Source of the DNA: Pseudovirgaria hyperparasitica
Taxonomy: Eukaryota
Length of the DNA: 64,000 nt
Reading direction: 5' to 3' (one strand)
Assembly: GCA_010093815.1 (NCBI GenBank)
Contig: ML996566.1
The notes below the pieces were generated by a model, which did not search any database, was not told the origin of the DNA, and worked only from the letters and a program-made list of their open reading frames with translations. Of the stretch, positions 3,226 to 23,814 are shown one piece after another. The translations under genes and the position numbers were made by a program. Positions within the stretch are counted from its first letter, which is position 1. Every line of letters begins with the position of its first letter.

Positions 3226-4455
3226 CTAGTATAGTTGGCCAGTTCAAGGAAGTTCTAACTCCAGACTGTGGTAACGATGTACTGCTCTGAGGTTCTGAGA
3301 TCCTGGAGTGTTGCAGAGTGCCTTTCAGGCTGTTTAACTTCTTCGCAGAAATCATTCTATTTTGTTAGTGAATGATTATCTTAGAGAAAATAGGTAGTAT
3401 AGGTTACATCCTCATAGTGCTCCAGCTCAACTGATATTCCTGGATCTCGATAGAGCTTCCATGAGGCGTGTCGGGTAGAAAGGTTGGTGTGTTCCAAGAG
3501 ATGAATCGAAACGCGGAGACATCTAGCGCAGCGCGGTCCTAGCTTAGGAGAGACTGCACACCGCTTGCGAAGACATTGTACTATCCTATGTCTGACATTG
3601 AGGATGTGAACCCTCTTGCTGTAGTATGGGTGTACATTGTCGAAGATATTTTGAGAATAGGATGTGCTTCAATGAGAGAACAGAGTATACTTTGAGAACA
3701 TTTGAGTGAATACTACCGCAAGACATATGTGTCTCTGTACCGTTCACACATTCCATGCTTTGTCGCACCCGTGTGGCTCGCCACGTCGGCATTTCACCCG
3801 GAAGAATGTTGTTGCCTGTCGTTTAAAACATTGTGTATACATGGAGCGTCAAGGGGCGTTACAGGCACCCTATATGCCAGCGCGTACCTTCCGCGCTCTA
3901 GCATTGTCTTAGTCTAGAGATCTAGCGTTAGTCCAAATCCAGCTGATCGAATTCTTACACTTGTTGAGCTTGGGAAACTTGTGAAACGTATTAGTATACT
4001 AAAGGTGTATATAAAATAAGTGTAATCTATAAGAGATAGTATATAGTAGTCTAAAACTATAGAGTTATAAATGACTTAAAGTAGCTCCTTAAAGAAGGAG
4101 CTATTATAGACTTTGGCTTTACCTAATACTATTTACTATATAATACACACTTATACTAGAACTAGAAAGATATAGAGACAGTAAGAAGATACTAGTCTAG
4201 CCTTGTCTATTAGATTCTATAATAATAATAATAATATTAGTAAACTAGGTAGAGTACCACTCTATAGGCGCATGCCTCCTCTAGTCTAAGCTACTATATA
4301 AGAAGAAACCTATAAATAGGAAAAACTCCCTTATATCTATGACTACGCTCTATCTATCCTCTCGTTCTTTATATATATATAGCCCTAGGGGCTACCTATA
4401 GGCCTATAGCCTATATTATAATAGTTTACCCTTAGATAGCACGTATAGATGCGGA

Positions 4456-4490
4456 GATTATTAGTTAAGGGCTACCCTTAACTAATAATC
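4456..4490. repeat. Perfect hairpin (16-bp stem, CTA loop) in the LINE 3' UTR
   Basis: GATTATTAGTTAAGGG-CTA-CCCTTAACTAATAATC. Confidence 0.9.
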
Positions 4491-4699
4491 GCGGTTCTCC
4501 CGGGGTTCTTCCGACGTATACCGGGGTTCTTCTAGTATATATCGGGCTTCTTCCGGTATATATACGCGGGTCTACTAGAACTAGGGGAGAGGAAGGTATA
4601 TAAGCATCTATCGGGCAACGTCCTTAGGGTACTTATTAAGCTATCGCGTAATATTAGAGGTCCTCGTTATACGGACGAGGGCTTATCTTAGGGTATAGA

Positions 4700-6032
4700 G
4701 GCTAGAGTACGTCGCGAGGTAGTGGCGTATTATACCTCTCTAGCTATAGTCCTCGTACTAGGGAGATATATCTAGAACGCCTCTCTAGTAGAGATAATAT
4801 AGAAGACCTATAGCGCCTATTTAGGCTTAGAGGAGTATAGATGCTTAGGCCTTCGTTAGCCCTTTATATATCTATTTACTTAGTTCCTTCTAAGGCCCTC
4901 GGATCTATTCTAGATATCTATTCTATTAGGAGGCCCACTAGGCTTTAAGTATCTCCCTCTATTTATCCTAGATCTATAACCGTATAACGCGGCTAAGCTT
5001 CTTAGGGCTCTATTAGCTTAGGACGGCATCTAGATTATTTTAAACCTTCTACGCGGTCTAGCTCGAGTCCGCCTCTATATAGTATTTATATTATACTTAA
5101 GTTCGTTCTATAGTAGGGAGGGCCTAGTAATATACGTAGATATATATACGTAGTACGGCGAAGGTATATACCCTATCTTCTCTACGTTCTTATACTTATT
5201 ATTTAGTAAAGTATATAAGTCTCTATATCTAGTAGAAGTTCTATATACTTATTACGTTTATCTCGCGTTAGAGGAGCGTTATATTAGTAGCTTTATATAT
5301 ACTAGAGATAAGGCGGAGTATATAGTTTTATATAGACTTAAGCTTTACTCGCTAAGCTTATATAAGGGCTATATACTAGTACTTATATCCGTATATAAAG
5401 GCCGGGCGTACTAGGGAGACGTATAGCTATCTCGCCTTATCCCGGGCTATTCCCTACGTAGATACCGTAATCCGGCGTATAGCAGTTTCTACCTAGAGGG
5501 CTCTAGAGACGGCGTGTGCTACCTATAGTCCCTATTTTAGCTTATTATCGATTATAACGCCGAGTGCGCGTATACTCTATACTAGTAGTTCTATAAAGGC
5601 GTCGATTTAGGGGTAACGTGCCCCCTCTCTAGTAGTCTATCCTCTATAGCGGTTAATAAAGTATATAAGCTAGTATTTTTTAGGTGTGAATTTTACTCCG
5701 TGGCGCTTTACCTACTAGACGTATTTCTCGTGGTCTCGTTCGAGTCGTATATATATTCTACTAGTACTACTATTGACCGCGAGAAGGTATATATCGTCCG
5801 CGTATCTAACTACCTCTATATATTCTATTCTCTAAAGGAGGTCTACTATAAAGAAGAGGAAGAGGATCGGGGAGATAGTACTCCCTTACGGGATGCTATA
5901 TACTATCTCCTTATATTCGCTTCGGTATCCGGGGATATATATTTAAGTAGTTCTTTACGCGAGGAAGGACTATATAAATTATATAATCTACTTAGGTATT
6001 CGCCTTATCCGGAGGTTATGGATAAGTCTTAT
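4700..6032 (-). pseudogene. LINE ORF2 3' half: reverse transcriptase core and C-terminus
   Basis: RLIHNLRxRRIP, (G)IP(Q)GSTISPILFLFF, and YADD at ~5793-5804. The frame is continuous with the 14081 side once the Gypsy and one TSD copy are removed. The 3' boundary is approximate. Confidence 0.85.
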
Positions 6033-6270
6033 TATTAGGACGGGAACTACAACGGACCTATATAGACTATTCTAATCCATGCAGCCACGTAGTGGCCAGA
6101 GCTAGGTTAAGTTAGCTAAGTTAAGCGAGGTCACTATATAAGTGGACCGTATAAACCGATTCCTACTCGTTAGGAATTAACCTCGTATAAGAGTAAGATT
6201 ACTCTATAAATATATTCCTATATCTCTCTATAAACTATTAGACTACTATCCCACGTCTTTACTCTTTATA
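6033..6270 (+). repeat. 5' LTR
   Basis: Direct repeat of 13838-14075. Termini TAT...ATA are consistent with RIP-mutated TGT...ACA. Confidence 0.95.
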
Positions 6271-6311
6271 TTTTAATTCCTCTCTATATAGCACGATGGT
6301 AGCTTATAGAG

Positions 6312-7694
6312 ATAGCTCCTACTACGCGCTATAATACCCGTGGCACTACCTTATATAAGAGACTCTCTCTAAATCTAAACGAAGAGAATAGTCTCTCTAC
6401 GACCACCTCTACTAATAAGCACACTCTATAGGCTATCGTACTAATAACTAGTATAGTATTCCGTATAACTGTGGAAGATTACCTAGATAATAAGGAAGGA
6501 GTCCATTATACTCCATCGCGGTCTAGTTTATACTATACTAGACCTATCCTTACTATAAGACTAGACCCTATTAACGTTAATGAATTAATTCGTTAGAACC
6601 GACTAACGTTAACCACGCCTTATAATAACGTGTATACTAAGCTACACGTAGAGAGGTAGCGTTAGGCTTAGCTCGAGTAGTAACTTCGCGAACTTAATAA
6701 AGCGTAAGGATGAACCGCTAGACTCGAAGCCATACTACGCGCTTTAGTGCTAGTAGTAACTAATCTATACTAATATAGATTAACTTAAGCCGAAATAGTC
6801 TAACTAAGTCTATTACTATCCTAGTTACCTCGGCCTAAGAAACTACCTTACTTCGATGGTAAAACTAGGAGGAGCTTTTACGAATAGGCTTACTAGTATA
6901 GCCGATTCTTCCACCTATTCACGAATAATAGTAATAAGATTAGGTTCGTATAGAACTATCTAGATCTAACGCTATCTGAACGTTAGATAGTATATCGAAT
7001 TAAACACCCTAAGGATATATATAACTAGGACACGTTCACCGAATTCCTTCTTTAATACTTCGGCGATAGAGCCGAGCGACGCGAATAGGCTTAGAGCTAT
7101 ATCTTTAAGACTTAATAGTAAGAGAGATAATCCCCGTTATAACTCCTTAAATACCTCCGACCTCTTTAGAGAGAAGCCGAGGAAGATTATATAGTTCGAT
7201 AATATAACGACTTTAAAAGGTCTCTTAACCCGAGCGTAAAGAAACGTATTAACCTTATAACGTCTATCTCTACTAACCTTTAGGCACTCGCGAATCTTAT
7301 AGAACGACATTAGCGTATAATAAATAACTAACGTTGTATAGACGCACGACTATCCCTATTAATCTAATCCGATATAAAATCGTCTAAAGAGGACCGGTTT
7401 AGTAATAGATCACGCGGAACACCTCGTGGGCGCTACTACTCTACGAACTCGAGAAGACGAGGCCCGTACCGCGGATCTTTCTACTAGTCGATATATCGAG
7501 ACGCGAGAAACGACTTATATAAATAACCTAAAGTTACCTACTACACCTATAGTAGAATAGGCTATATAGTACCCGAGTACCGCTTAGGGAAACCACTAAA
7601 TACTAATATAGATACTAAGTTAGTCATATACTATAAGTACTAGTAGCTAGGATATATCGCGCCTAACTACCTAGTACACGATATAAAAAACTAA
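6312..7694 (+). pseudogene. Gypsy gag (RIP-destroyed) with two CCHC zinc knuckles
   Basis: ATA (ex-ATG) at 6312 is in frame with TAA at 7692-7694. Reverted knuckles TCYTCGRIGHIAPEC (~7537) and ICYKCQQPGHIAPNC (~7626). Confidence 0.8.
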
Positions 7695-10600
7695 CTATCT
7701 ATAAGGAACCCTTGCGACTTATAGACGTAACCGAAATAGAGGAATAACTAGCTAACTAGTATATCGAACTATAGGCTAGGCCTATTAAGGTCCCTTATAG
7801 ATAATATTAGACTATAATACTCGATAGCGGTTTAGCTACTAACGTTATATCGACTTAATAAGCACGAGAACTTAACGTCGATATTTAAGTACTAATAGAT
7901 GCTACCTTCTATGGTATCGACGGTCCTATTAAATCGTAGGGTACCTATACTATTAAATACGGTATCTAGGATAGCGGGGGGAAGTAGAAACCCTACTACT
8001 TAACCTTTATCGTGGTAGATAGTCCCTTTAATATGATCCTCGGTATACCGTAGCTCGAAAAATATAACCCGAAACTAGACTTTATCTAGAAAATAGCTAG
8101 CTGGCGCATATACTTACTATAATAGAACCTAGTATAGCTAGTCGACGACGAATAATTCTAGAAGAACTACGAAAAGGTAATCTCCGCTATCTACGTCCTC
8201 TTACTTACTTAAAATAGAGAGCTTAGTATTAAAGTAGACGAAAACCTACTATATTAGTATAAAATATACTAATATATCGCGTTAGTAATCGACTCGTCCA
8301 AATTACCTTAATACTAATCTACCGACCTTACTATTAACCTCGAAGATAGTTAATAACCCCTATACGGACCCATCTACCCTCTATTAGAACCCGAGCTATA
8401 GGTCCTCCGAGAATATATCGAAAAGAACCTTACATAAGGATAGATTAGGCCTAGTATATCTCTAGCCGGAGCTCTAATCCTCTTTATAAAGAAGAAGGAT
8501 AGGAGTCTCCGTCTATATATCGACTACTATAGCCTAAATAATATTACGCGAAAGAATCGTTACCTACTACCTCTTATCTCCGAGTCTATTAATAGACTAG
8601 GGCGTATAAAGATCTTTACTAAGCTCGATCTACGCGACGTCTACTACCGCCTACGTATTAAGAAGGGCGATAAGTAGAAAACGGCGTTTAGGACCCGTTA
8701 TAGATACTTTAAGTATATAGTAGTCCCTTTTAGACTAACTAATATACTAGAAACCTTCTAAGCGTATATTAATAACGCGCTAGTAGGTCTACTCGATATG
8801 ACGTGTATCGTATACCTTAATAATATCCTTATCTTCTCTAATAATAAAGAAGAACATATCTAGCACGTACGCGTAGTCCTAGATAGGCTAGAAAAATATA
8901 AGCTATATATTAAGCTATCTAAATGCGAGTTCCACTAGGACTATATTAACTTCCTTAGCTTCGTTATTACTAATTAAGGTATAACCATAGAAAGGGATAG
9001 GGTCGCTACTATTATAGACTAGCCTAAACTAAAATCGGTTCGAGACATACGTATCTTTATTAGATTTACTAATTACTACTAAAAATTCGTTAAGTATTTC
9101 TCCTGGCTAGTAGTACCGCTTAACGCGCGTACTACTACCATAGATTCGTCTATTACGGTCCGCGGTAGATAGAAATAGTATAATATTAAATCGTAGCCTA
9201 TAGAATTATCAGAAGGCGAAAGGGCCTCCTTCGAGAAAATTAAAGAGGCATTTATAACTACCCTATTACTAGTGTACTTTAACCCGACTAAACCTATCCA
9301 CGTTAAAACCGACGCGTTAGGATTTATAATCTTAGGTATTCTCTCCTAGCCTAGACTAACTAAGTCTAAAAAGGTCTAATAGTATCTAGTTACGTTCTTC
9401 TTACGTAAAATAGTCGATATTAAGACTAGATATACTATCTATAACTAAGAGCTACTAGTAATAGTAGAGTCGTTTAAATAGTAGCGATATTATCTTAAAG
9501 ATGCCATGTATAACGTTGAGTTACTAACTAATTACTATAACTTAAAGGGGTTTATAAGCACGACGGTTTTAAACCGTTAATAGGTCTAATAGGCTAAGTA
9601 GCTTGCGAACTTTCACTTTATAATCTACCATCGACCTAGAAGTATAAACCTAGCTAATAGAATATTAAGAAGACCTAACTATAAAGAAGGCGCCTAGGAT
9701 TATAGTAGCTATAGGGTCCTAGAGTAGCTATAGGCCTAACTCTTAAGGACGAGGTTAGATTTTAAGTTATTAGGCGATTAGCGAGATGCTAACGTTAATA
9801 CCGGTAATCGAATCTCTAAGACCGAAGCTAGTAACTAAAGACGCGGTACTAAAGTCCCTAGTAGACCGTTTATTAGCGCTATCGGGAAGGGCGATAATAC
9901 CCGGCGTGAATATCTAATTAACCTCGCCTAGTTAATTATAGATCTATAGAAGATAGACCCGATAGTTTTAAAGTTACGTAAAATATAATAAGATAGATTA
10001 TTACGGACTAAAGTAGACTATAAGTAGACCTTCGTGGACGGCTTACTTTACTATAATAGAAAGTACTATATACTAATAGGTAACGCGCGATTTAACGTAG
10101 TTAGCTAATACCATAACGCTAACCTAGTAGGATACTTTAGGTATATACGTACCCTAAGCTTAATTCATTAGTACTATTTTTAGAAAGATATACCTAAGTA
10201 CGTTAAAGAATAGATAGCTACTTATCCGATTTATTAAAGAACGAAGGCCCCTAGGCACAAGCCATATAGGAATTTATAGCCTCTTTCAGCCCCCCTCTTT
10301 ATGTAGGAAGACGTTACTATAGACTTTATAGTTAACTTACCTCTAAGCGAGATACTTAGAATAAGTTATAATTCTATTCTTATTATCGTGGATAGACTTA
10401 TAAAGATATCTAGGTATATCCTAGTGTGGAAGACGATTACATCTAAAGAACTAGCGTAGGTGTTCTAGAACGAGATTATTAAGGTCCATAGTATACTAAA
10501 AAGGATCGTTACGGACCGAGGAAGTACCTTCACGTCTAAATTCTAGATGTTATTCTATAAAATAGTAAGCATGAATAGAAATATATCTATAGTATTTTAT

Positions 10601-11461
10601 CCTTAGACGGATAGCTAGATAGAGTAATAGAACTAGACGCTCGAGGCCTACCTACGCGCATTCTATAATTTTAAGTAGGACGACTAGGCCTCCCTACTAA
10701 GTATAGTAGAGTTTATATATAATAATAGTTATTATAGTATAATAGGTATTATACCTTTCTAGGCGAACCTCGGACGTAGTCTAAGGATAGATTTTAAGTC
10801 TTAGACGGTCTAATTTAATTAAATAATAGACGTAAACGTCCACGCTTAGGAATTAGCGATTAAAATCTTCGAAACCGTACGTAACTATCACGCTATAATC
10901 TAATAAGTAAACGACTCGTATACGAAGTACTATAATAGGTTAGCTAAGGATTAGACGTACGAGGAGGGCGATAAGGTCCTTCTTAATATCCGTAATATAC
11001 GAACGTCGTAAGTAAATAAGAAGCTCGATTATAAAATGGCTAGTCCCTTCCGAATCAAACGTCGTATCGGTATAAGAGTCTACGAGCTCGACTTAGGAAG
11101 TAACATAAGAATCTATAATATATTCCACGTCTTACTACTTAAAAGATTTCGACCTAACGTATATAGCCGCACGAACGTATAGTTATACTCTATTATACCC
11201 TAAGATAGACTAGACGTGTTTGAAGTAGACTATATTATCGAACATAGGATCGATAAAGACGGTGTTTAGAAATATAGAATCCGTTAGAAGGACTATACTA
11301 AGGATAAGAATACCTAGGAACCAGCGGTATATATCTTAAGTTCTATAATAGCTACGTATAAGTAAAAGATATAGAATAGCGTATTATTAATATAAGTATA
11401 GCGACGTCGCGGTCGTCGTAAAAAGAAGAAGAATACCATAGAGAACGAAGTACTAAACTAG
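7685..11461 (+). pseudogene. Gypsy pol: protease, RT, RNase H, integrase, chromodomain (RIP-destroyed)
   Basis: ILDSG (~7818); PxYGPIYPLxEPEL; KKKDxSLR; YLNN = ex-YLDD (~8812); VxTDAxGF (~9302); IVTDRGSTFTS (~10505); FxP*TDx*xE; xPF (~11042); chromodomain FEVDxIIEHR..YRIR*KDYTKDxNT*EP (~11219-11323). The end is approximate. Confidence 0.9.
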
Positions 11462-12045
11462 GAAATCCAGACGCGCACTAGGAAAACTCTATATAGTAGC
11501 CCCATAATTTAAGCATCGTATGGTTACTAGACGCGAAGAAAGCGTAAATAACCATTTTAGGAACGCGACGCGATATACTATAATAGAATAATATAGAAGA
11601 GTCTAGAATAGACTAATATAGACTATTATATACGAGAAAAACATAGGACTAAGAATCTAAAAAAAGGTACCCTACCATAGAATTAAACTCTTAATACGAA
11701 ATATAAAAGGTTAGAGTACCCGAACTAATAACTACTAGGCCACTAGTTTAGGTACTCTAATGGAATTCATAGAGATAAACTAATTTATATGCGGTGCCTA
11801 CACTTAGGTGACTTAAGGAAAATTAGAATATAGAAACCGATAGTTATAAGCTAAGCGAGCGTACACATAATATCGTTAAGTTAAGAATTAAATTACTAGA
11901 AACTAGCCGATAGGTATCTAAACGGTCTAAAAAGGACTAAAATGGATAAAAGCCAGGTAAATAGAGCCGGCGCGCACCACCTATAGTAGATCCAGAATAT
12001 ATAGAGCTAGGCATAGAACTAATATATAGAGCTAGAACCATAGAG

Positions 12046-13358
12046 CTACTTCTCTATCTTATTATCCGTCCTAATCTCTAGTATAGTCCTCTCTAACCGC
12101 ACGATATGGCGGTAGAGGACGACGACCTTAGCCTCTAGAGTAATAACCCGATCCGTTAGAGCCTAGAGGGAAGAGCCTTAAGCGCCGGAGCGTAGCGACT
12201 AGGTCTAAAGTTAGCTAACACGATCTAGAATAATCTAGAAGGGAATATATACCCTCTTACGAGGCGACTTAGAGAGAGAAATAGTAGACCTCTTATAAGA
12301 TCCGTTAGTAGCGCGAGACGGACGGGGGGGAATAGAGCGAATCCTCTCTACGGCCTCTATAGCTAGAATAGACTCCCTAGAATAGGTAGCCTAGGCGCTA
12401 GGGATCTCGCGGCGGCTAGAAAAATTAATGGGTGTTAAAAATAATTAACGTGCTCGTAACTTATACTTTAATAACCTCTAGGAAGAGCTTATAGCGCTCC
12501 CTAAACTCCCTCTATATAGTAGGTAGGCGGCTATAAGGACCCCTAAGGGTCTCGCGGATACGAAGGTCGTTATATATATCTTATATATATATAGGAACCT
12601 AAGAATATATTAGCGCGGACTACTTTAGATCATACTAGATTAAGATAGCCTATTATACTTACCTATAGATAAGTCTTACTAGTCACGGTATAGCGGCGGT
12701 AGCGGGTAGGTAGAGTAAAGATAGGGTATATAGGCCCGTCGCGGTTAGTAGAGTAGTAGCTAATACTAGAGTTAGAGCGAAAGAGATATTTAGAGCCGGC
12801 CGTATAGCCCTTAATGCACTTATAGTATATCGAACCGTAGTTCGCCGTTTTTCTATGGCGTAAACCGCGACCACGTTTAGTATCCTCGGCGACCTAGGCC
12901 TTATTATTAGTAGGCTAGAGTTTAGAGCGAATATTAAGGTCCTAAAAGGACCTAGAGCGACTAAATCGGTCTATATTGGACCGGAAGGAAGAGCGGCGAG
13001 ACGGCGGCGTGGGTAAGCGCGAGGGCTCGCGATCATCGTCTATGACGAGATCTTCTTTATCCTCTAGAGGAGGTAGAGTAGATAGCGTACGCTTTAGAGT
13101 GAGAGGAGAACCTATAACTACTTTATCTATAAGTTTAGTACTAGGATTACCTAGATTAGAGCGACTAGTAGCCATATTAGTGGCAGAGGTAGCAGTAGTA
13201 GTAGCCCTAGCTACTCTCTTCTCCGACTTAGAGCGCGCCTTTATACCACCGCGATAGGTAGGCTTCTTAGCCGGCGTGGCCGGGGAGGAGGCGATGCCTT
13301 TAGAGCGAGTCTTACGAGAGGAGGAGGTAGGCTTAGAGATAGGACTAGTATTAGATAT
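12046..13358 (-). pseudogene. Spliced antisense accessory gene inside the Gypsy element (4 coding exons, 384 codons; Cys-cluster plus coiled-coil protein), RIP-damaged
   Basis: Exons 13358-12663, 12598-12465, 12415-12253 and 12204-12046 join in one frame (696+134+163+159 nt). Introns of 64, 49 and 48 bp carry GTAAGT/ATAAGT/GTATAT donors, branch-like sites (GCTAAT, TTAAT, GCTAAC) and TAG acceptors. The internal stops read are TAG/TAA, as expected from RIP of CAG/CAA/TGG. Confidence 0.7.
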
Positions 13359-13820
13359 CTATATATACACGTTAGCTAGAGATCTAAGGAAGGAATATTT
13401 ATCTACCCTTAACGGCGATTAACGAAGCTAAATTAGTAACCGTAATAACGCGAATAGGTTATATAGGACCGGTTCTAATAAGAATAGACTACTATAGACC
13501 CTTCTAAACCTAAACTAGGGAAGATAGTATATGAATTAACGACTTACCTTAAGAGCGAGGTAGATATACTAGAGAATAAAATTAAAGGCGAGCGAAGCTA
13601 AATATATGCTCGACTAAAGTAGTAATTATATATCCTAGGTAGTAGCCACGAAGTAAGGGATAAGCGCGTGCATGAACTAATAAAAGTAAACTAGAATCTC
13701 GAGTTCACCTATATTAAGGATGGTTATAACGTTATAGGAACTTAGTCACGGATATATAGGTATACGATAGATTATAGAGACTTAGAATTATATATACTTA
13801 AGTACTTTAGGGCGAAGCAT

Positions 13821-13834
13821 AAAAAGAAGAAGGA
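13821..13834 (+). other. Polypurine tract (plus-strand primer)
   Basis: AAAAAGAAGAAGGA ends 3 nt before the 3' LTR. Confidence 0.8.
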
Positions 13835-13837
13835 TAT

Positions 13838-14075
13838 TATTAGGACGGGAACCATAACGGACCTATATAGACTATTCTAATCCATGTAGCCACGTAGTGG
13901 CTAGAGCTGGGTTAAGTTAGCTAAGTTAAGTAAGGTCACTATATAAGTGGACCGCATAAACCGATTCCTACTCGTTAGGAATCAACCTCGTATAAGAGTA
14001 AGATTACTCTATAAATACATTCCTATGTCTCTCTATGAACTGTTAGACTACTATCCCACGTCTTCACTCTTTATA
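13838..14075 (+). repeat. 3' LTR
   Basis: Direct repeat of 6033-6270 with no indels; about 14 differences by eye, all transitions. Confidence 0.95.
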
Positions 14076-14080
14076 CTTAT

Positions 14081-15830
14081 ATAGTTTACCTTATTAAACG
14101 CCCCTACTATATCTAGGGAGAGTAGCGTAACGACTCGTCCTTATTTCTATATAGTCTAGATAACCTTAAGGATATATTAAATAGCTATAATTAGGGAGCT
14201 TTCTACCTTCGCCTTCTGGTTTACTAGGAGAAGGCCGTATACCTATACTACTATACTTATCTTCTTAGTAATCGTAGCTTCTAGTACCTTACTAAGGTAG
14301 AAGAGGAGGGCGATCGGCCTCTATCCCTTCGGCGTGTTTAGGCTCTTCTCTAGTTTTAGGAGTATAACCGTATATATAGTTTAGAAGCTCTATGGGTAGT
14401 ATCCTATACGGGCGTATACTTAGAATATATAGCCTATAATTAGTAAGGTCGCCTATATGGTTCTCTTAAGGCATCAATTCGGAATTCTATCTAGCCCGGG
14501 CGCTTTATCGTTCGGGAGTATCTTAATGGCGCTAAGTATATCGTCGTCCGTGATTTCCCTAGGGATACTTATAGTTTCCGGGTATTCCGTGCCGTTAATA
14601 TCTAATAGGTCTATAGGTTCTAGGAGAGGGAATATAACCTCTTATAGGATCTCTATTTTCTCGAGGCTTATAGAGTATGTCTTTTCTTAATATATAAGGG
14701 GAGGTATAAGTGGTGTAGGTGTCGGGGAGGCGGTACTTTTAGCCTATTTTACTATATACCATAGTCTAGTAGTATTACGTGTGTGTCTATCCGTAACTAT
14801 ACGCTACTATTTACGTCGCTTATTACGGAGGACCTTATCTCGTTATCTTCTCGTCTCTCTCTATTTATCCTATACTTTAGGTATGCGGTTATAGTATACG
14901 TATATATATAATCTCCGGACTTCTCGCCTATACTCTCGTACTTAAGGTATACTTTTTAGGTCTAGGGGTCTATATATTTAGTACGGCACGTGTTTATCTC
15001 TTACTCCCTAGTATACCTATAGAAGTATATTTACGGCCTAGTCGATGGCCGGGCCATTAGATATGTCGACTATAGACGGGTCTAGGATCGTTAATTCTAG
15101 GTTCTTTAGGTACTTTTCCTAGTTAGTATCCTTCTATAGCTATCGCCCTCGTTAGTCTTAAGGGGTAGATACGTCTATTACGGTCTCTATATATTTATAG
15201 TCGGAGTCTATCTATATAAGGCTTAGGCGGTAGTATTAAGTCCTATTATAAATGTGTTTAGTAGCTAGGGTAAGGTCGAGTATAGATCCGCCCTTATCTT
15301 ATTTATATTTTCGCTAGGTAATCTATTCTACTAGTATAAGAAGGTAAAGGAAGTAGTGGTATTAGGTGTATAGTTCTCTAGCTCGAAGCTCTTCGCGGGT
15401 GACGGTTAGTCTATCCTACTAGCTATAATAGAGGTTAAAGTCTTCTAGAAGGATATGTTATCCTAGCTTAGTAGTACCCTTAAGCATATTATCTACCTAA
15501 AGCGATCGGTTCTAATTATATATATTATATATATAGAGGGGTCCGATATTCGTCTAGAGGTGTAGTATTATCTAGAGGTTATCCTATTTAGTATATAACT
15601 ATAATAAGAGTAGGATAGACTTATAGATATGGAAGAGGACTCTCCTCTCCGGTCCTAGGGGGTATATTATATAATATTCTAGGTGTGTTATTGGTTTGTT
15701 CGTCTGGTAGTATTTATATAGCTTCTATATAGTAAGTATTATAGCTCCGGTCTCCTTAAGGAGTATCGCCTGGTTCTTACGTTTATACTATACGTTTACC
15801 TATATAATTAGGAGTATATCTTAGTCTCTT
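14081..15830 (-). pseudogene. LINE ORF2 5' half: APE endonuclease and start of reverse transcriptase
   Basis: RIP-reverted motifs IIQANVQH, ILAIQEPY, HILLGDFNLHH, VLDLTLAT, IDSDH, then RPIALL and LLSLDIxGAFDKV immediately before the Gypsy insertion. Confidence 0.85.
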
Positions 15831-15834
15831 ATTA

Positions 15835-17292
15835 GGTGCTAGGGAATATATAGACCTATATATTTATTCCTCTAAGATGCGACTATCCTCATACGGCGGC
15901 GGCCTTAGTAATTCCTTAGGGCTATTCTATTATTAGCTTTCTTAGGATGGTTTACTATTCCTAACCGCTTCCTCGTAAGGAGGTAGTCTATAGTAGTAGT
16001 ATTATAGTAAAGAGAGGAACGGTAGTAGATCGCATCGTTTATAGCTACCTTACTCCCTTTATCCGGATTAAGTAGATATATTTAGTAACCTATTTACGTT
16101 TCGCGTACGTAGTCGACTATAACGGGTACTTACTATCGTAGTTAGAGTACTTCGCCGTATCCCTATCTCTCTAGCCCTCTCCTTATATCCCGTAGAGGCA
16201 CTCCTAGGTACTATATTCTTATCGATACTACCTATACCTAGTCTTTTAGGAGTACCGCTATGCCGTATACCTATATCTCTAATAGTTAAAGCACTATATT
16301 ATCGCCTATACTCTATCCCATGGTTCCGCTATAAGAAGCTCCCCTTCTACTAGGAATCCCTCTTACGTAATTTAATACGCGAGGGCGGGGTCCTTAAGCT
16401 CTACTATTATAGTAGAGTATACCTTTAATCTAGTTTTAATCCCTTATATATTCTTCTACCATACTCTTACGATCTTAATCCCTAGGTATTTTCGCTTATT
16501 TAACTATTCTATCCGCGTAATATCCTCTTCTCCGATAACCTATCCGCTTACGGGTATAGAGTATACCTATATTAGGTATATGGCCGCCCTAATAGAGGCG
16601 CCTAGGAAGATACTACTAATCGCGTTCGGATCGCGCGAGATAGTCTACTACACGATATTCGTTATTATGGTAAGTACTACTCCTTCTAGTATAAGTTTAG
16701 TAGTAATAATATTTAACTATATTCCCTTTTATTCGTTAATCTTACTTACTATATCCTTTAGGGATGCTTACTAGACCTATACTAGGGTGTCCTTATTCTA
16801 GATTATAACGCGTATACTATACGCCGCGTCGCCGGTCCGGGGGGCCCGTAGTATAGCCTCCGGTGTTACTACTATTTATACCTATATACTAGGGCGCTTA
16901 CCTTAAGTAAGTTCCTCCTAGATTCTATATAGGCTAGCCTCTATTCGGTTAAGCCTACCCTCCGGTTCTCCTAGTTATATCTTCTTCTCCTCCTCTATAA
17001 TTCTCTTTAGGTTCCGGATAAGGTCCTAGAATATATATAGGAGGGTCTTCTAGCCCTCTCCGGCTTCCTTCTCTATATATACTACCTAGTAGTTAATATA
17101 ATCTAGAAGGGTTTCCCCTCTTAGGGTCCCCTTTATTCCGTCTATCTATAGCGGCGTGCGCCTTTAGGTATATTCTACGTTTTAGATAGGTATATAGCTA
17201 CCCTTAGTAATATCGCTATATAGCCTTTTCTATTATACCGGTGGGGGTATATCCGGTATATACTAGGGTATATCGGTGCCTAAGGCCACTAT
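15835..17292 (-). pseudogene. LINE ORF1 (gag-like nucleic-acid-binding protein), RIP-destroyed
   Basis: Around 16105-16290, reverting TA to CA/TG gives QCFNCQRYGHTAQRC, RCGQCRQEHSTQEC and KCSNCDGKHPSWSTTC. Probable start ATA (ex-ATG) at 17292. The 3' boundary is approximate. Confidence 0.8.
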
Positions 17293-17293
17293 A

Positions 17294-17326
17294 TTTATTA
17301 GTTAAGGGCTACCCTTAACTAATAAA
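17294..17326. repeat. Perfect hairpin (15-bp stem, CTA loop) in the LINE 5' UTR, same core as 4456-4490
   Basis: TTTATTAGTTAAGGG-CTA-CCCTTAACTAATAAA. Confidence 0.9.
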
Positions 17327-18287
17327 AGGGGGTCGGCGTATTGGCGTTCTAGTAGTGTAGTCCGTGCCTCTATCTCCGTAAGGATTTTAAGAGGGTATAT
17401 ATATATCTTTATACGGCGATAACGTCTTAGTTTCGACGCTATATGTACGTACGTGTGGTAGTAGTTAGTGTACTTAGTATACTCTATTGATTAAGGTATG
17501 TATCTCGCTGTATTACCCCGAATGGACTAAGTTGGCCTCTTGGGGATGTAAAAGAAGTTTTTTATCTATAATATATCCATTAGATTCTATATGAATACTT
17601 TATATAAGAATATGTTGTAGAATAGCTCTATTACTATCATTCTCAAGATAATTTATAAGAGAATGAATCTCTGATAGATATATTGGAAGGCTTGTAGACA
17701 TATTTCGAGCAGCGAGTGAGAAACAGCCGACAGAAGCCACGCAACAGGAGGTCTCAATACTCACTAACTGTTTTGACTTCATTTTTGTGACGCGGCCTTT
17801 GCGCAGGAACACATCAGCGATCGGTGAGTATTGAGACACCCGGTTGTGCTGAAGCGGTCACGCATCAGCATGTAAGATGTCTAATTCGTAACGCCCGCTT
17901 GCACCACCTGGTCAACGATAACTAGACATTGAACAGGTAACAGCATCGAGGCTTTGTGGTATGTCTCGCAAAGGGGCGCGTCCTACACGCTCCAACCTGG
18001 CATTGACAGAGAACTTTCGTTGGGATGTGGCTGTGACTGTTTTACTCAGACCCTGCTACTATCTTACAAGTGGAGAGGCAGGTTAGACAGCTTGCAGCCC
18101 TCCTCATCAGGGGATTTATGATAAATGAGCGTGAATTCCGACTATTTACTCTACTTGATAGAACAAACTTCACCTTCTGCCTTTGGTCTTCGCGTGTATT
18201 CTAGGAGAACGCAATATACGAAAAGCCCCTGACTCAACCAAAGTCTGGTACATTACAGAAGGAACTCGTCTCACGGAAACTAGCACG

Positions 18288-21378: not shown

Positions 21379-23814
21379 ATGGCAGCTGAGCCTAAGATGG
21401 AAACACAATATATCGCGGGCGCGGTCGTCGGGGTGAGCAGAAGAAAGAAATACAATGGCTGCCAGCTGATATCAGTTATTAGCACTTGACGGCAGATTCC
21501 ATCAACGGCACCGATTCAGGGCTTCACTCCATTGCATCTGTTTCACAGATTGGGGCCATTGTTCCCGTCACCCTGTTCTCCTCAGAAGACACGGTCTTAA
21601 ACCCCTCAGGCATTATCAACACCATACAGAAGTTTCGCACCACAGATGACGTATTCTCTGATTACTTTTTGACTGGTCACGTATTGGTTCAGAGTGCTGA
21701 GCTTGTGACTCGAGAGCAGGTCTTTAGAGAGTTCATTGGGACTATCTCAGGCGGGTCTGATCAGTGGCTCGTCCAGCGGGTCGATCTTGTGGCATATGAC
21801 AGTGTCAAGAGTAGCTTGCCAAGTGGACCTTATTTCCTGGAAGGTCCTTTGGTCAGAAAGGCGTACAGACTATATGGTGATTCACTTGAATCATTCCAGG
21901 CTGCGGTCCTGCCTGCAGAGGACGGGGGAGATTACAGGTTGGTAGGCATGAGTTTCGGAGAAGCAATAACTTGCTAATCTAGGATAGCTTTGTTGAGCTT
22001 CATAAACCTATAAGAAAAAACAATGGCGCCTGGATTCAGTCAATTGCCGTACCCAGCCGCTGCTACAGCAAGCCAACCAAAGACAAGCCACTCTCTGGAG
22101 TTCGAGTCTCAGTCAAAGACAACTACGCACTAGCAGGATTGAAGACAGGGAATCAGAACAAGGCCTTTTTCGCGACTTATGAGCCCGAGCAGGAGTCGGC
22201 TGAATATGTCAAGCGCCTAATCGACCTTGGCGCCGTGATTGTCGGAAAGACCAAATTGTCGTCTTTCGCATCTAGTGAGAAGCCTTGCGACTGGTGGGAG
22301 TTTCAGTGCCCGTTCAACGCTCGAGGCGACGGCCAGTTAAACCCAGGTCAAAGCACGACCGGAGGAGCGACTGCAGCGGGTGGATATGACTGGCTCGACA
22401 TTTCCATCGGCAGTGATAGTAAGTATGCATATCTACTGCGTGGTGATATGACTGATCTGAGAATGAAAGCATTTGGCAGTGTCCGAGAGCCAGCCGCCCA
22501 GAATGCTGTCTATGGTATCCGATTCAGTACGGATGTGGCTGTGCCGATGGGGGGCGTGTACCCAAGTTCACCGTTCGTCATCTTGTCTGTATACAATCTG
22601 CCCAACTAAATTGAGAAGTGTCTTTGACGTCATTGGAATCCTCGGTCGCGATCTTGCTGCATTCAGTACTTTCGCTAAAAGTACGGTGAATTCAGTTATA
22701 AGGACTTACGACAAGGTACATCGAAGTTGAAACATTAAGTCTAAGGCATACTCACTCGTGACACAGTGGCCTCAACGGATATTGTACCCTACAGACTTCT
22801 TCCCGAGTGGTGAGAAAGCCCAGCAACAGTTCTGGGATGGGTTCGTGACAGTACTCGAGGATTTCCTTGGCGTCAAGAAGGAGTCAATAAGTATTGAGCA
22901 GACTTGGAATGATGAGCCTCCTGCAGCGGCTGCAGGCAGGGACTACAAAACTTTCACGAAATATGTGAGCTAGAAGAGTCTCAGGTATCGAACGACCAAC
23001 ACTGAAATCCCAATAGCTTGCTGCCAACCCGTTCTACTACGATGGTTACCACGAGTACGAATACTTCCGCGCGGATCATCTAGCAAAATTTGGGACGAAG
23101 GCATATGTTTCGCCGCATATGCAATGGAAATGGTAAAGCCAGTCGATGACTCGCTGGAGGCTCCTAGTTAACTCGAAGGCAGGGATATAGGCGCAAACTT
23201 ATCAAAATCAGATTACGAACAGTCAAAGAAGGACATCGTCCTGTTTAGAAAATGGTTCGACACAAAGATAATGGGCAAATCGTCCGGATCAGGAACAGAC
23301 GCTATCCTGGTTCTACCAGTCGGACCAGGCGCTCCAGTGTACCGTGATCAGTTCGTAGTACCGACGCCACGTCTCGGGCTAGATGCTCTGAACCTTGCGG
23401 CGGCTCTTGCATTGCCACATGCGGTATTTCCTAGTAAGCTTTAATAGAGTTATTGTGCTTCGACGTCTCTAACTGAAAGCAGTTGGCCAGGTCCCGTACG
23501 ACTCGCCTAAGAGCGGCCGCAAAGAGTATCTTCCGATTGCAGGATCTATAGCTGGAGCAAGCGGTATGTGTATAAGGTTCTTCACAGATACCATACCTAA
23601 TGTGCTGAATGCAGGAAGCGACCTGGTCCTTATCGACCTAGTCCATCGAGCTTTGATGAAGGCAGTATGGCCTACCACCATCAAGGCTGGACGGACTGCT
23701 TTCGATGACGATCGAACCCTCGACATGTCGGTCACAGCGCAAGTAGCAATGCTTGGGGTGGTAGGAAGCGAGGATCTAACCGACACAAAGCTTGTACAAC
23801 AGCAGAAGAACTGA
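21379..23814 (+). CDS. Amidase signature (Ser-cisSer-Lys) family protein, multi-exon
   Basis: SVKDN (Lys), GAVIVGKTKLSSFA, PFNARGDG, PGQSTTGG, and IGSD|TFGSVR after splicing. About 9 canonical short introns keep the frame. The start (21379 or 21398) is uncertain. Confidence 0.85.

Follow-up and report, generated by a model that had tools for sequence, protein, structure and literature searches.

Open reading frames (ORFs) lying antisense between pol and the 3′ long terminal repeat (LTR) are a described class in plant and fungal LTR retrotransposons, according to the text available from two sources (PMC7264820, PMC11963269). The class definition used here is the aORF-3R of Vicient and Casacuberta (2020). 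Plant members named in the available text are gene23 of maize Grande, rice RIRE2, Retand of Silene and other plants, which displays a TRP28 domain, and Phaseolus PvRetro13; it also mentions a proposed nuclear or DNA-binding role for these ORFs and a promoter of its own shown for Grande (PMC7264820, PMC11963269). The fungal precedent is brtn, an antisense additional gene of Boty-like (BcGypsy1) elements in Botrytis cinerea and Sclerotinia, as given in excerpts of four papers (PMC7264820, PMC8365987, PMC4227169, PMC5987419). Here we describe a locus of this type in a 64,000 nt stretch of contig ML996566.1 of Pseudovirgaria hyperparasitica (assembly GCA_010093815.1), referred to as the window. 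A chromodomain Ty3/Gypsy element, situated at window positions 6030–14078 on the plus strand (8,049 nt) and heavily altered by repeat-induced point mutation (RIP), shows a 2.36-kb spacer that begins where pol ends (~11460) and reaches to the polypurine tract (PPT, 13820). It is rather likely that this spacer carries a real, RIP-inactivated protein-coding gene on the opposite strand, interrupted by short spliceosomal introns. In this copy the gene is dead.

The brtn gene, reportedly described by Zhao et al. (2011) in Virology and known here from descriptions that cite it, is alike in lying antisense in the space from pol to the 3′ LTR. This case differs from brtn in that the host is RIP-competent and the copy is dead. 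The plant ORFs, as far as the source text goes, are alike in position, in orientation, in the unusually long pol-to-LTR region and, for the most part, in having no similarity to known proteins. They differ in coming from plants and mostly from non-chromovirus lineages, and their TRP28 domain is not matched in the present region. The HBZ gene of human T-cell leukemia virus type 1 (HTLV-1) is spliced. It is an antisense retroviral gene driven from the 3′ LTR and encodes a nuclear regulatory protein, in the portions of the sources available (PMC7264820, PMC11963269). HBZ is alike in being encoded antisense, at a retroelement's 3′ end, and in having introns compatible with passage through a sense genomic RNA, but it belongs to an animal retrovirus, encodes a bZIP protein and shows no sequence relation.

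The exons proposed here (12046–13358) lie between the end of pol and the PPT, and the gene probably belongs to the aORF-3R class of extra antisense genes. The original prediction made from this sequence overrated the novelty of the arrangement, as antisense extra ORFs in this position, with brtn as the fungal precedent, had already been described. The word "intron" occurs zero times in the reviews PMC7264820 and PMC11963269, and limited literature text searches brought up no fungal LTR element for which an antisense gene with introns is described. A fungal intron-bearing example would be a useful test case for antisense extra genes; introns prove that the reading is from the opposite strand and that the gene cannot be a by-product of the sense transcript. 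To our knowledge, LTR retrotransposons widely carry extra antisense genes, none of which has a known function. With the copy dead here, its value is as a pointer to a family whose active relatives, if any, could be studied.

Periodicity and stop codons in the spacer

RIP makes transitions only and no indels. It therefore leaves the purine/pyrimidine sequence untouched, and purine fractions by codon position are a RIP-invariant measure. In exon 1 of the minus-strand gene model (coordinates of all features are in Table 1) the fractions at codon positions 1–3 are 0.55/0.47/0.31 (p = 4.5e-7). In pol they run in the same direction, 0.59/0.52/0.47, with p = 1.3e-8 over five times the length of exon 1. 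Both flanks of the gene and the LTR are flat (p = 0.46–0.72).

TA dinucleotides show a corresponding pattern. Over the four exons their phases are 30/35/96, piled at the codon 3-1 junction (p = 1e-11), and exon 1 by itself gives 16/19/62 (p = 1.3e-9). The same 3-1 pattern is seen in pol (187/196/283), and the gene flanks are even, e.g. the 11461–12045 segment gives a TA phase of 36/28/33 and a purine p = 0.46. No other part of the 13.5-kb RIPed block shows period-3 purine and TA patterns as strong as those of exon 1. Purine/pyrimidine periodicity, not erasable by RIP transitions, can recover coding regions from RIP-saturated DNA.

Exons 2–4, joined in the spliced frame, show purine fractions of 0.57/0.47/0.40 (p = 0.015) but singly are not significant. 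Exon 2 (TA phase 6/6/13, purines 0.55/0.55/0.39) weakly favours the proposed frame. Exon 3 shows a TA phase of 3/3/13 (p = 0.005) in a genomic frame other than that of exon 1, and the preferred TA phase shifts from exon 1 to exon 3 as the intron lengths predict. A continuous unspliced frame cannot account for both exons 1 and 3, because the phases differ, RIP makes no indels and no indel among the copies is above the listing threshold. The minus-strand, intron-interrupted coding signature between pol and the PPT, as claimed in the original prediction, is thus supported.

Stop-codon density also favours the proposed frame. The spliced frame has 2.6 per 100 codons vs 7.6 in pol and 9–19 in the off-frames, and exon 1 contains 4 vs 11 and 35 in the other minus-strand frames. 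The spliced protein shows no Gln and no Trp; the RIP-saturated pol shows no Gln and 3 Trp.

Splice signals and the gene model

The strict fungal intron model consists of a GTA[AT]GT donor, a CTAA[CT] branch 4–25 nt before a YAG acceptor, and a length of 44–75 nt. It gives one match in the RIPed block (2 × 13,501 nt), and this match is intron 1, located where the exon 1 frame closes. On host DNA it gives two matches in 2 × 46,000 nt, both flanked by open frames. These two, at 23564–23614 (+) and 24811–24766 (−), are probably real host introns. Intron 3 is matched by a looser model that keeps the CTAA[CT] branch but allows RIP-derived donors; the counts of distinct donors in the block under this model are 9 on one strand and 19 on the other. 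Intron 2 is matched by the loosest intron model only. Introns 2 and 3 are one RIP transition off GTAAGT and GTATGT, with branch motifs TTAAC and GCTAAC. The donor of intron 2 reads AT and becomes GT only after reverting a TpG>TpA RIP change. When intron 3 is read through, 3 stops are found in 16 codons.

Together the four exons span 1152 nt (384 codons), and the introns are in phases 0, 2 and 0; the exon coordinates and the arithmetic of the original prediction are right. The spliced frame has 10 internal stops (8 TAG, 2 TAA, 0 TGA) and a terminal TAG. Its first codon is ATA, and the sole ATG is at codon 62. The 10 stops, the ATA start and the AT donor are all products expected of TpG>TpA or CpA>TpA changes, which is an assumption for each one, and active copies would have had an open frame. 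The term "maintained", applied earlier to this gene, does not suit a copy that carries all of these changes. A 5′ untranslated region (UTR) intron had also been suggested. Its donor is present, and its end lies directly before the first codon, which is an ATG only by RIP reversal. The candidate intron region displays no coding periodicity, and sequence signals are its sole support.

Table 1. Window coordinates of the element and of the proposed antisense gene
Feature	Position	Strand	Description
5′ LTR	6030–6273	+	244-nt direct repeat, 94% identity to 13835–14078
pol, RIP-inactivated	7700–11460	+	Reverse transcriptase (RT), RNase H, integrase, SH3_Tf2-1 and chromodomain in one frame
Second copy of PPT and first LTR bases	11419–11442	+	At end of pol
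Non-coding stretch, would hold antisense 3′ UTR	11461–12045	−	No periodicity, no Pfam match
Exon 4, 53 codons including terminal TAG	12204–12046	−	In frame after intron 3; 3 internal stops; helical-looking C-terminus
Intron 3, 48 nt	12252–12205	−	agg-GTATAT ... GCTAAC TTTAG; in frame
Exon 3, 54 codons	12415–12253	−	1 stop; 51-codon open stretch; SPRKR motif
Intron 2, 49 nt	12464–12416	−	agt-ATAAGT ... TTTTAAC ... TCTAG
Exon 2, 44 2/3 codons	12598–12465	−	2 stops
Intron 1, 64 nt	12662–12599	−	tag-GTAAGT ... GCTAAT ... TTCTTAG
Exon 1, 232 codons	13358–12663	−	Basic Ser/Thr/Pro-rich N-terminus, then Tyr-rich stretch; 138-codon open stretch
Candidate 5′-UTR intron, 189 nt	13547–13359	−	aag-GTAAGT, GCTAAC, end GCTAACGTGTATATATAG directly before first codon
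Upstream region, putative promoter and 5′ exon	13548–13819	−	Suggested by position; no periodicity
PPT	13820–13834	+	Purine run AAAAAGAAGAAGGA abutting 3′ LTR start
3′ LTR	13835–14078	+	94% identity to 5′ LTR 6030–6273

The strand is called from two observations: the minus-strand frame of exon 1 contains 4 stops vs 9 in its plus-strand mirror frame, and splice signals are found on the minus strand only. Both point to an antisense orientation relative to gag-pol. The periodicity is strand-neutral and cannot name the strand, because the mirror plus-strand frame has the same periodicity. Only antisense introns persist through retrotransposition via a sense genomic RNA; this is established logic, and the earlier argument built on it is sound.

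Several observations weigh against an antisense gene of this structure, the first being the periodicity held in common with the mirror frame. Exon 4 is the weakest exon, with no periodicity of its own (TA 5/7/8, p = 0.7), and the proposed frame of exon 2 has 2 stops vs 1 in a neighbouring frame. The ATA start, the AT donor and the 10 stops must all be credited to RIP, and with a single RIPed copy and no homologue found, an open frame in active copies has to be assumed. An alternative path, with its weak donor at 12666 and a single long exon that stays in the frame of exon 3 straight through intron 2, has 3 stops in 115 codons and equals exon 2 plus exon 3 on stops. The proposed exon 2 version is favoured over this path only by the weak exon 2 periodicity and by the perfect GTAAGT at 12662. 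The stop-only best-path score lies above 198–200 of 200 dinucleotide shuffles, and that of the minus strand, 205, exceeds all 200 (91 ± 25), but such scores reach 185 in other RIPed segments and only 56–83 in true pol, and for this reason it is given little weight. Protein searches are empty for exon 1 and the C-terminal part, although the RIPed pol scores E = 1e-201. Finally, summed read depth is similar over the region, pol and an unrelated flanking repeat, and is thus no proof of family-wide carriage.

Some of these points would fit a region that is not a gene at all, i.e. a compositional by-product of a GC-richer, pyrimidine-skewed spacer with introns picked to fit. Four of the six frames are fairly open around 12660–13380, exons 2 and 4 are individually indistinguishable from other frames by stops, the frames and splice sites were freely chosen in the original prediction, and neither a homologue nor a Pfam domain is found; the stop-only scores of other RIPed segments also fit. 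Against this stands a coding-type period-3 pattern that is the strongest in the block and absent from the flanks, and no tandem repeat accounts for the periodicity. The contrast between TA at the 2-3 and at the 3-1 junction (35 vs 96) is independent of the choice of a stop-poor frame. The perfect CAG/TAG-GTAAGT ... CTAAT ... YAG intron at the end of the exon 1 frame is the only such match in 27 kb of strand. Exon 1 together with intron 1 is beyond chance, and exons 2–4 are weakly supported; a non-genic origin appears quite improbable.

It is also conceivable, but very unlikely, that the gene is real and its model partly wrong. The region could then consist of the single exon 13358–12663 with another 3′ end, of two exons joined via 12666, or of a sense ORF3 in the mirror frame (about 12946–13419). 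Strong periodicity is indeed confined to exon 1, the 12666 path is no worse in stops, and the mirror plus-strand frame is open for 103 codons with the same periodicity. The single-exon version is opposed by exons 2–4, where in the spliced frame purines at codon position 1 exceed those at position 3 (p = 0.015), and by the TA phase of exon 3. The donor at 12666 reads ATAGGT vs the perfect GTAAGT at 12662, and the mirror frame has the higher stop count, with gap sequences that show no GT..AG on the plus strand.

Relatives, origin and predicted product

The exons have no recognizable relatives in the collections searched. In Pfam, each exon yields zero families, and no TRP28; the six frames of 11401–13838 also yield none. 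Exon 1 gives 365 candidates in a collection of 5.8 billion clustered proteins, none at E ≤ 0.01, and no match at E ≤ 0.001 among 1.84 billion representatives. For the C-terminal part, the query 12414–12049 (exon 3 from its second base, then intron 3 left in and translated in frame, then exon 4 up to but excluding the terminal TAG) gives 135 candidates among longer proteins, none at E ≤ 0.01. A 76-residue Tyr-rich stretch shows no usable match in the ESM Atlas. RIP damage lowers the sensitivity of protein searches. RIP alone is not the reason for the missing homologues, because the equally RIPed pol is still matched easily; its best relatives in protein databases are chromoviral pol sequences with 35–46% identity at best. 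The gene is either lineage-specific, fast-evolving, or not a gene.

Metagenome contigs from JGI give 338 pattern matches to exon 1, with zero relatives among them. The integrase-chromodomain part of pol finds 39 loci in metagenome contigs, all only 24–53% identical, which are too distant for family membership. A tblastn search of these 39 loci with the spliced translation shows no match. Enough downstream sequence is present in 25 of the 39, and 17 of these are flanked by an LTR pair; the pol-to-LTR gap is 124–481 nt in 7 and 1766–5838 nt in 10. Loci L028–L031 are un-RIPed, distantly related Gypsy elements of ~9.1 kb with a ~2.9-kb gap between pol and the 3′ LTR (about 8200–11000). In the L028 gap, about 8200–10670, no ORF of at least 70 aa is found on either strand.

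A sequence similar to the PPT and the first LTR bases is found a second time at the end of pol (Table 1). Positions 11417–11439 and 13818–13840 are the same apart from transitions (23 nt). The extended transition-tolerant alignment, 11417–11455 with 13818–13854, scores 61 vs 38 ± 6 for shuffles, of which 4 in 1000 reach 61. This duplicated edge may be a scar left where pol, PPT and LTR met in an ancestral copy, with the 2.4 kb captured behind that junction, which would favour a transduced cellular gene, or it may be an internal PPT aiding plus-strand synthesis of a long element. The duplicated edge could show how such antisense genes are acquired.

A transduced gene could be no more than a passenger: a cellular intron-containing gene, or a fragment of one, taken up in reverse by an ancestral copy and amplified, with no role in the life cycle of the element. 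The introns themselves suggest a cellular origin, the duplicated PPT/LTR edge is the remnant expected if an old 3′ end was truncated and captured DNA came to follow it, with a new PPT-LTR beyond, and the coding signature is equally expected. Against a passenger, neither exon 1 nor the C-terminal part has a homologue in the protein collections, whereas the RIPed pol is found. In addition, transduced genes are put at one or few copies in the review text available, whereas here the region is represented by 7–35 variant contigs (gag and pol by 19–40), and the duplicated PPT could equally be an internal one. A passenger is unlikely. That the region represents a gene is probable, with the greater part of that confidence resting on a gene borne by the element and a minor part on a captured passenger.

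An element-borne antisense gene, the interpretation preferred here, would have a promoter of its own within the ~470 nt adjoining the PPT and the 3′ LTR, and its transcription would converge on pol. Its introns would be invisible in the sense genomic RNA and would therefore be copied faithfully at each retrotransposition. Splicing and translation of the antisense transcript would give a product of ~380 residues, with a basic Ser/Thr/Pro-rich N-terminus, a middle part in which Cys, His and/or Tyr were probably abundant, and a C-terminus that is helical. Such a product would fit a nuclear, nucleic-acid-binding accessory protein comparable to the extra antisense ORFs known from Grande, Retand and Boty.

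The first 138 residues contain 25 Ser, 16 Thr, 13 Pro, and 28 Lys+Arg vs 11 Asp+Glu. This composition suggests a basic, disordered tail with SP/TP-K/R motifs. The C-terminus looks helical. Residues 156–276, read in the original prediction as a Cys cluster reminiscent of Zn-binding ones, carry 15 Tyr, 1 Cys and 1 His codons. Saturating RIP turns both Cys (TGY) and His (CAY) into Tyr, and each Tyr here could derive from Cys, derive from His, or be original. The cluster was read wholly from Tyr codons and shows no Pfam match. The CCHC knuckle (PF00098) has the spacing C-x2-C-x4-H-x4-C, and the fungal Zn2Cys6 cluster has C-x2-C-x6-C-x5-12-C-x2-C-x6-8-C. When all Tyr are taken as Cys or His, positions 178/179, 181, 185, 191, 201/202, 211, 220, 223 and 230 give C-x2-C-x3-(C/H)-x5-C and C-x2-C-x6-C, 28 residues apart, and neither of these patterns fits fully. 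The zinc-binding assignment is not supported; a Cys/His-rich module in the middle part is possible but unproven. Our best guess for the product, by inference only, is a nuclear nucleic-acid-binding accessory protein. The antisense promoter and the part as nuclear regulator or anti-silencing factor suggested in the original prediction are conjectural.

A bolder interpretation, which we regard as doubtful, takes the region as a true third gene of a very-high-copy chromovirus in a RIP-competent fungus. The gene would be self-promoted and intron-bearing, transduced with the duplicated edge as the scar, and kept because it helps the element, e.g. in nuclear import, in transcription control or in escape from silencing, through a basic Cys/His-rich nuclear protein. 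If true, this would be a fungal spliced counterpart of the antisense accessory genes of retroviruses, unrelated in sequence to known proteins.

The host element and its copies

The element is bounded by directly repeated LTRs, and a PPT precedes the 3′ one. A Pfam profile search of the pol translation, run with X at stops, gives RVT_1 at residues 263–422 (9.5e-19), RNase H (with RT_RNaseH_2) at 505–637, Integrase_H2C2 at 797–850, SH3_Tf2-1 at 1090–1150 and Chromo at 1174–1221. The Chromo match, at about nt 11219–11363, has E = 4e-5 and 23.9 bits, slightly below the Pfam cut-off of 25.1; the sequence is RIP-damaged. The order RT, RNase H, integrase and C-terminal chromodomain in one frame identifies a chromovirus-type Ty3/Gypsy element. 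With the chromodomain and the PPT so placed, the unusually long pol-to-PPT region noted in the original prediction is real. No sizeable tandem, direct or inverted repeat marks a nested element within the 2.36-kb spacer, and a self-comparison of the window shows no further copy of the element, only the two LTRs being matched.

Over window positions 4001–17000, TpA/ApT is 1.56–1.93 and (CpA+TpG)/(ApC+GpT) is 0.11–0.30, the signature of RIP. Positions 17001–18000 are transitional (1.37 and 0.68), and the rest of the window gives about 0.4–1.0 and 1.0–1.6. The pol frame has 95 TAA/TAG and no TGA stops in 1253 codons. These stops, together with the loss of all Gln and all but 3 Trp, indicate RIP near saturation.

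Other copies are represented in two DNA sequencing runs, X1 and X2, from one sample of the source organism, with contigs only 116–174 nt long. More than 30,000 short pieces fall on the element in X1 and more than 11,000 in X2. There are 535 differing places in X1, of which 524 are transitions (40 of 593 variant places are listed), and no indels are found among the copies at the listing threshold. Positions in the antisense region show 7–35 distinct RIP-variant contigs in X1, with 19–35 at 6 of the 7 positions listed. These data fit a burst of near-identical copies followed by RIP. Every bin of the antisense region is covered in both runs, but this is not proof that the region is present in all copies, because the unrelated flanking repeat looks alike and the contigs are short.

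Some read contigs join distant positions. One contig of run X1 joins 6027 to 14076, as an empty site within the surrounding repeat would, and supports the ends of the element. The paired joints 11108>13840 with 14073>11105, and 11910>6035 with 6270>11913, are best read as the same element nested at 11105–11108 and at 11910–11913 in other copies, with short target duplications. The joint 11401>13819, a candidate for a variant without the whole antisense region, is probably an artefact that the duplicated PPT creates in the alignment; its intervening letters correspond to 11402–11417 in a RIP-variant form, and the sides consist of only 18–22 letters.

Just 3′ of the 5′ LTR, 48 nt with GT..AG ends (6451–6498, +) are skipped by one contig each in X1 and X2. 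They may represent an intron on the sense strand that some copies lost via spliced RNA, or an artefact, the sides being only 25 letters. Two further runs with the same species label, X3 and X4, whose kind is not known, show only 3 and 1 pieces on the element, one of them a 442-nt contig ~89% identical to the RT region. A strain that lacks the expansion, a different library type or a labelling matter could each account for the scarcity.

The element is embedded in other RIPed repeats (4000–6029 and 14079–17500). A LINE-like (long interspersed nuclear element) RT motif is found near 14474–14641 on the minus strand, and long stop-poor frames are found in the flanking repeats at 5589–6038 (+) and 16376–16774 (+).

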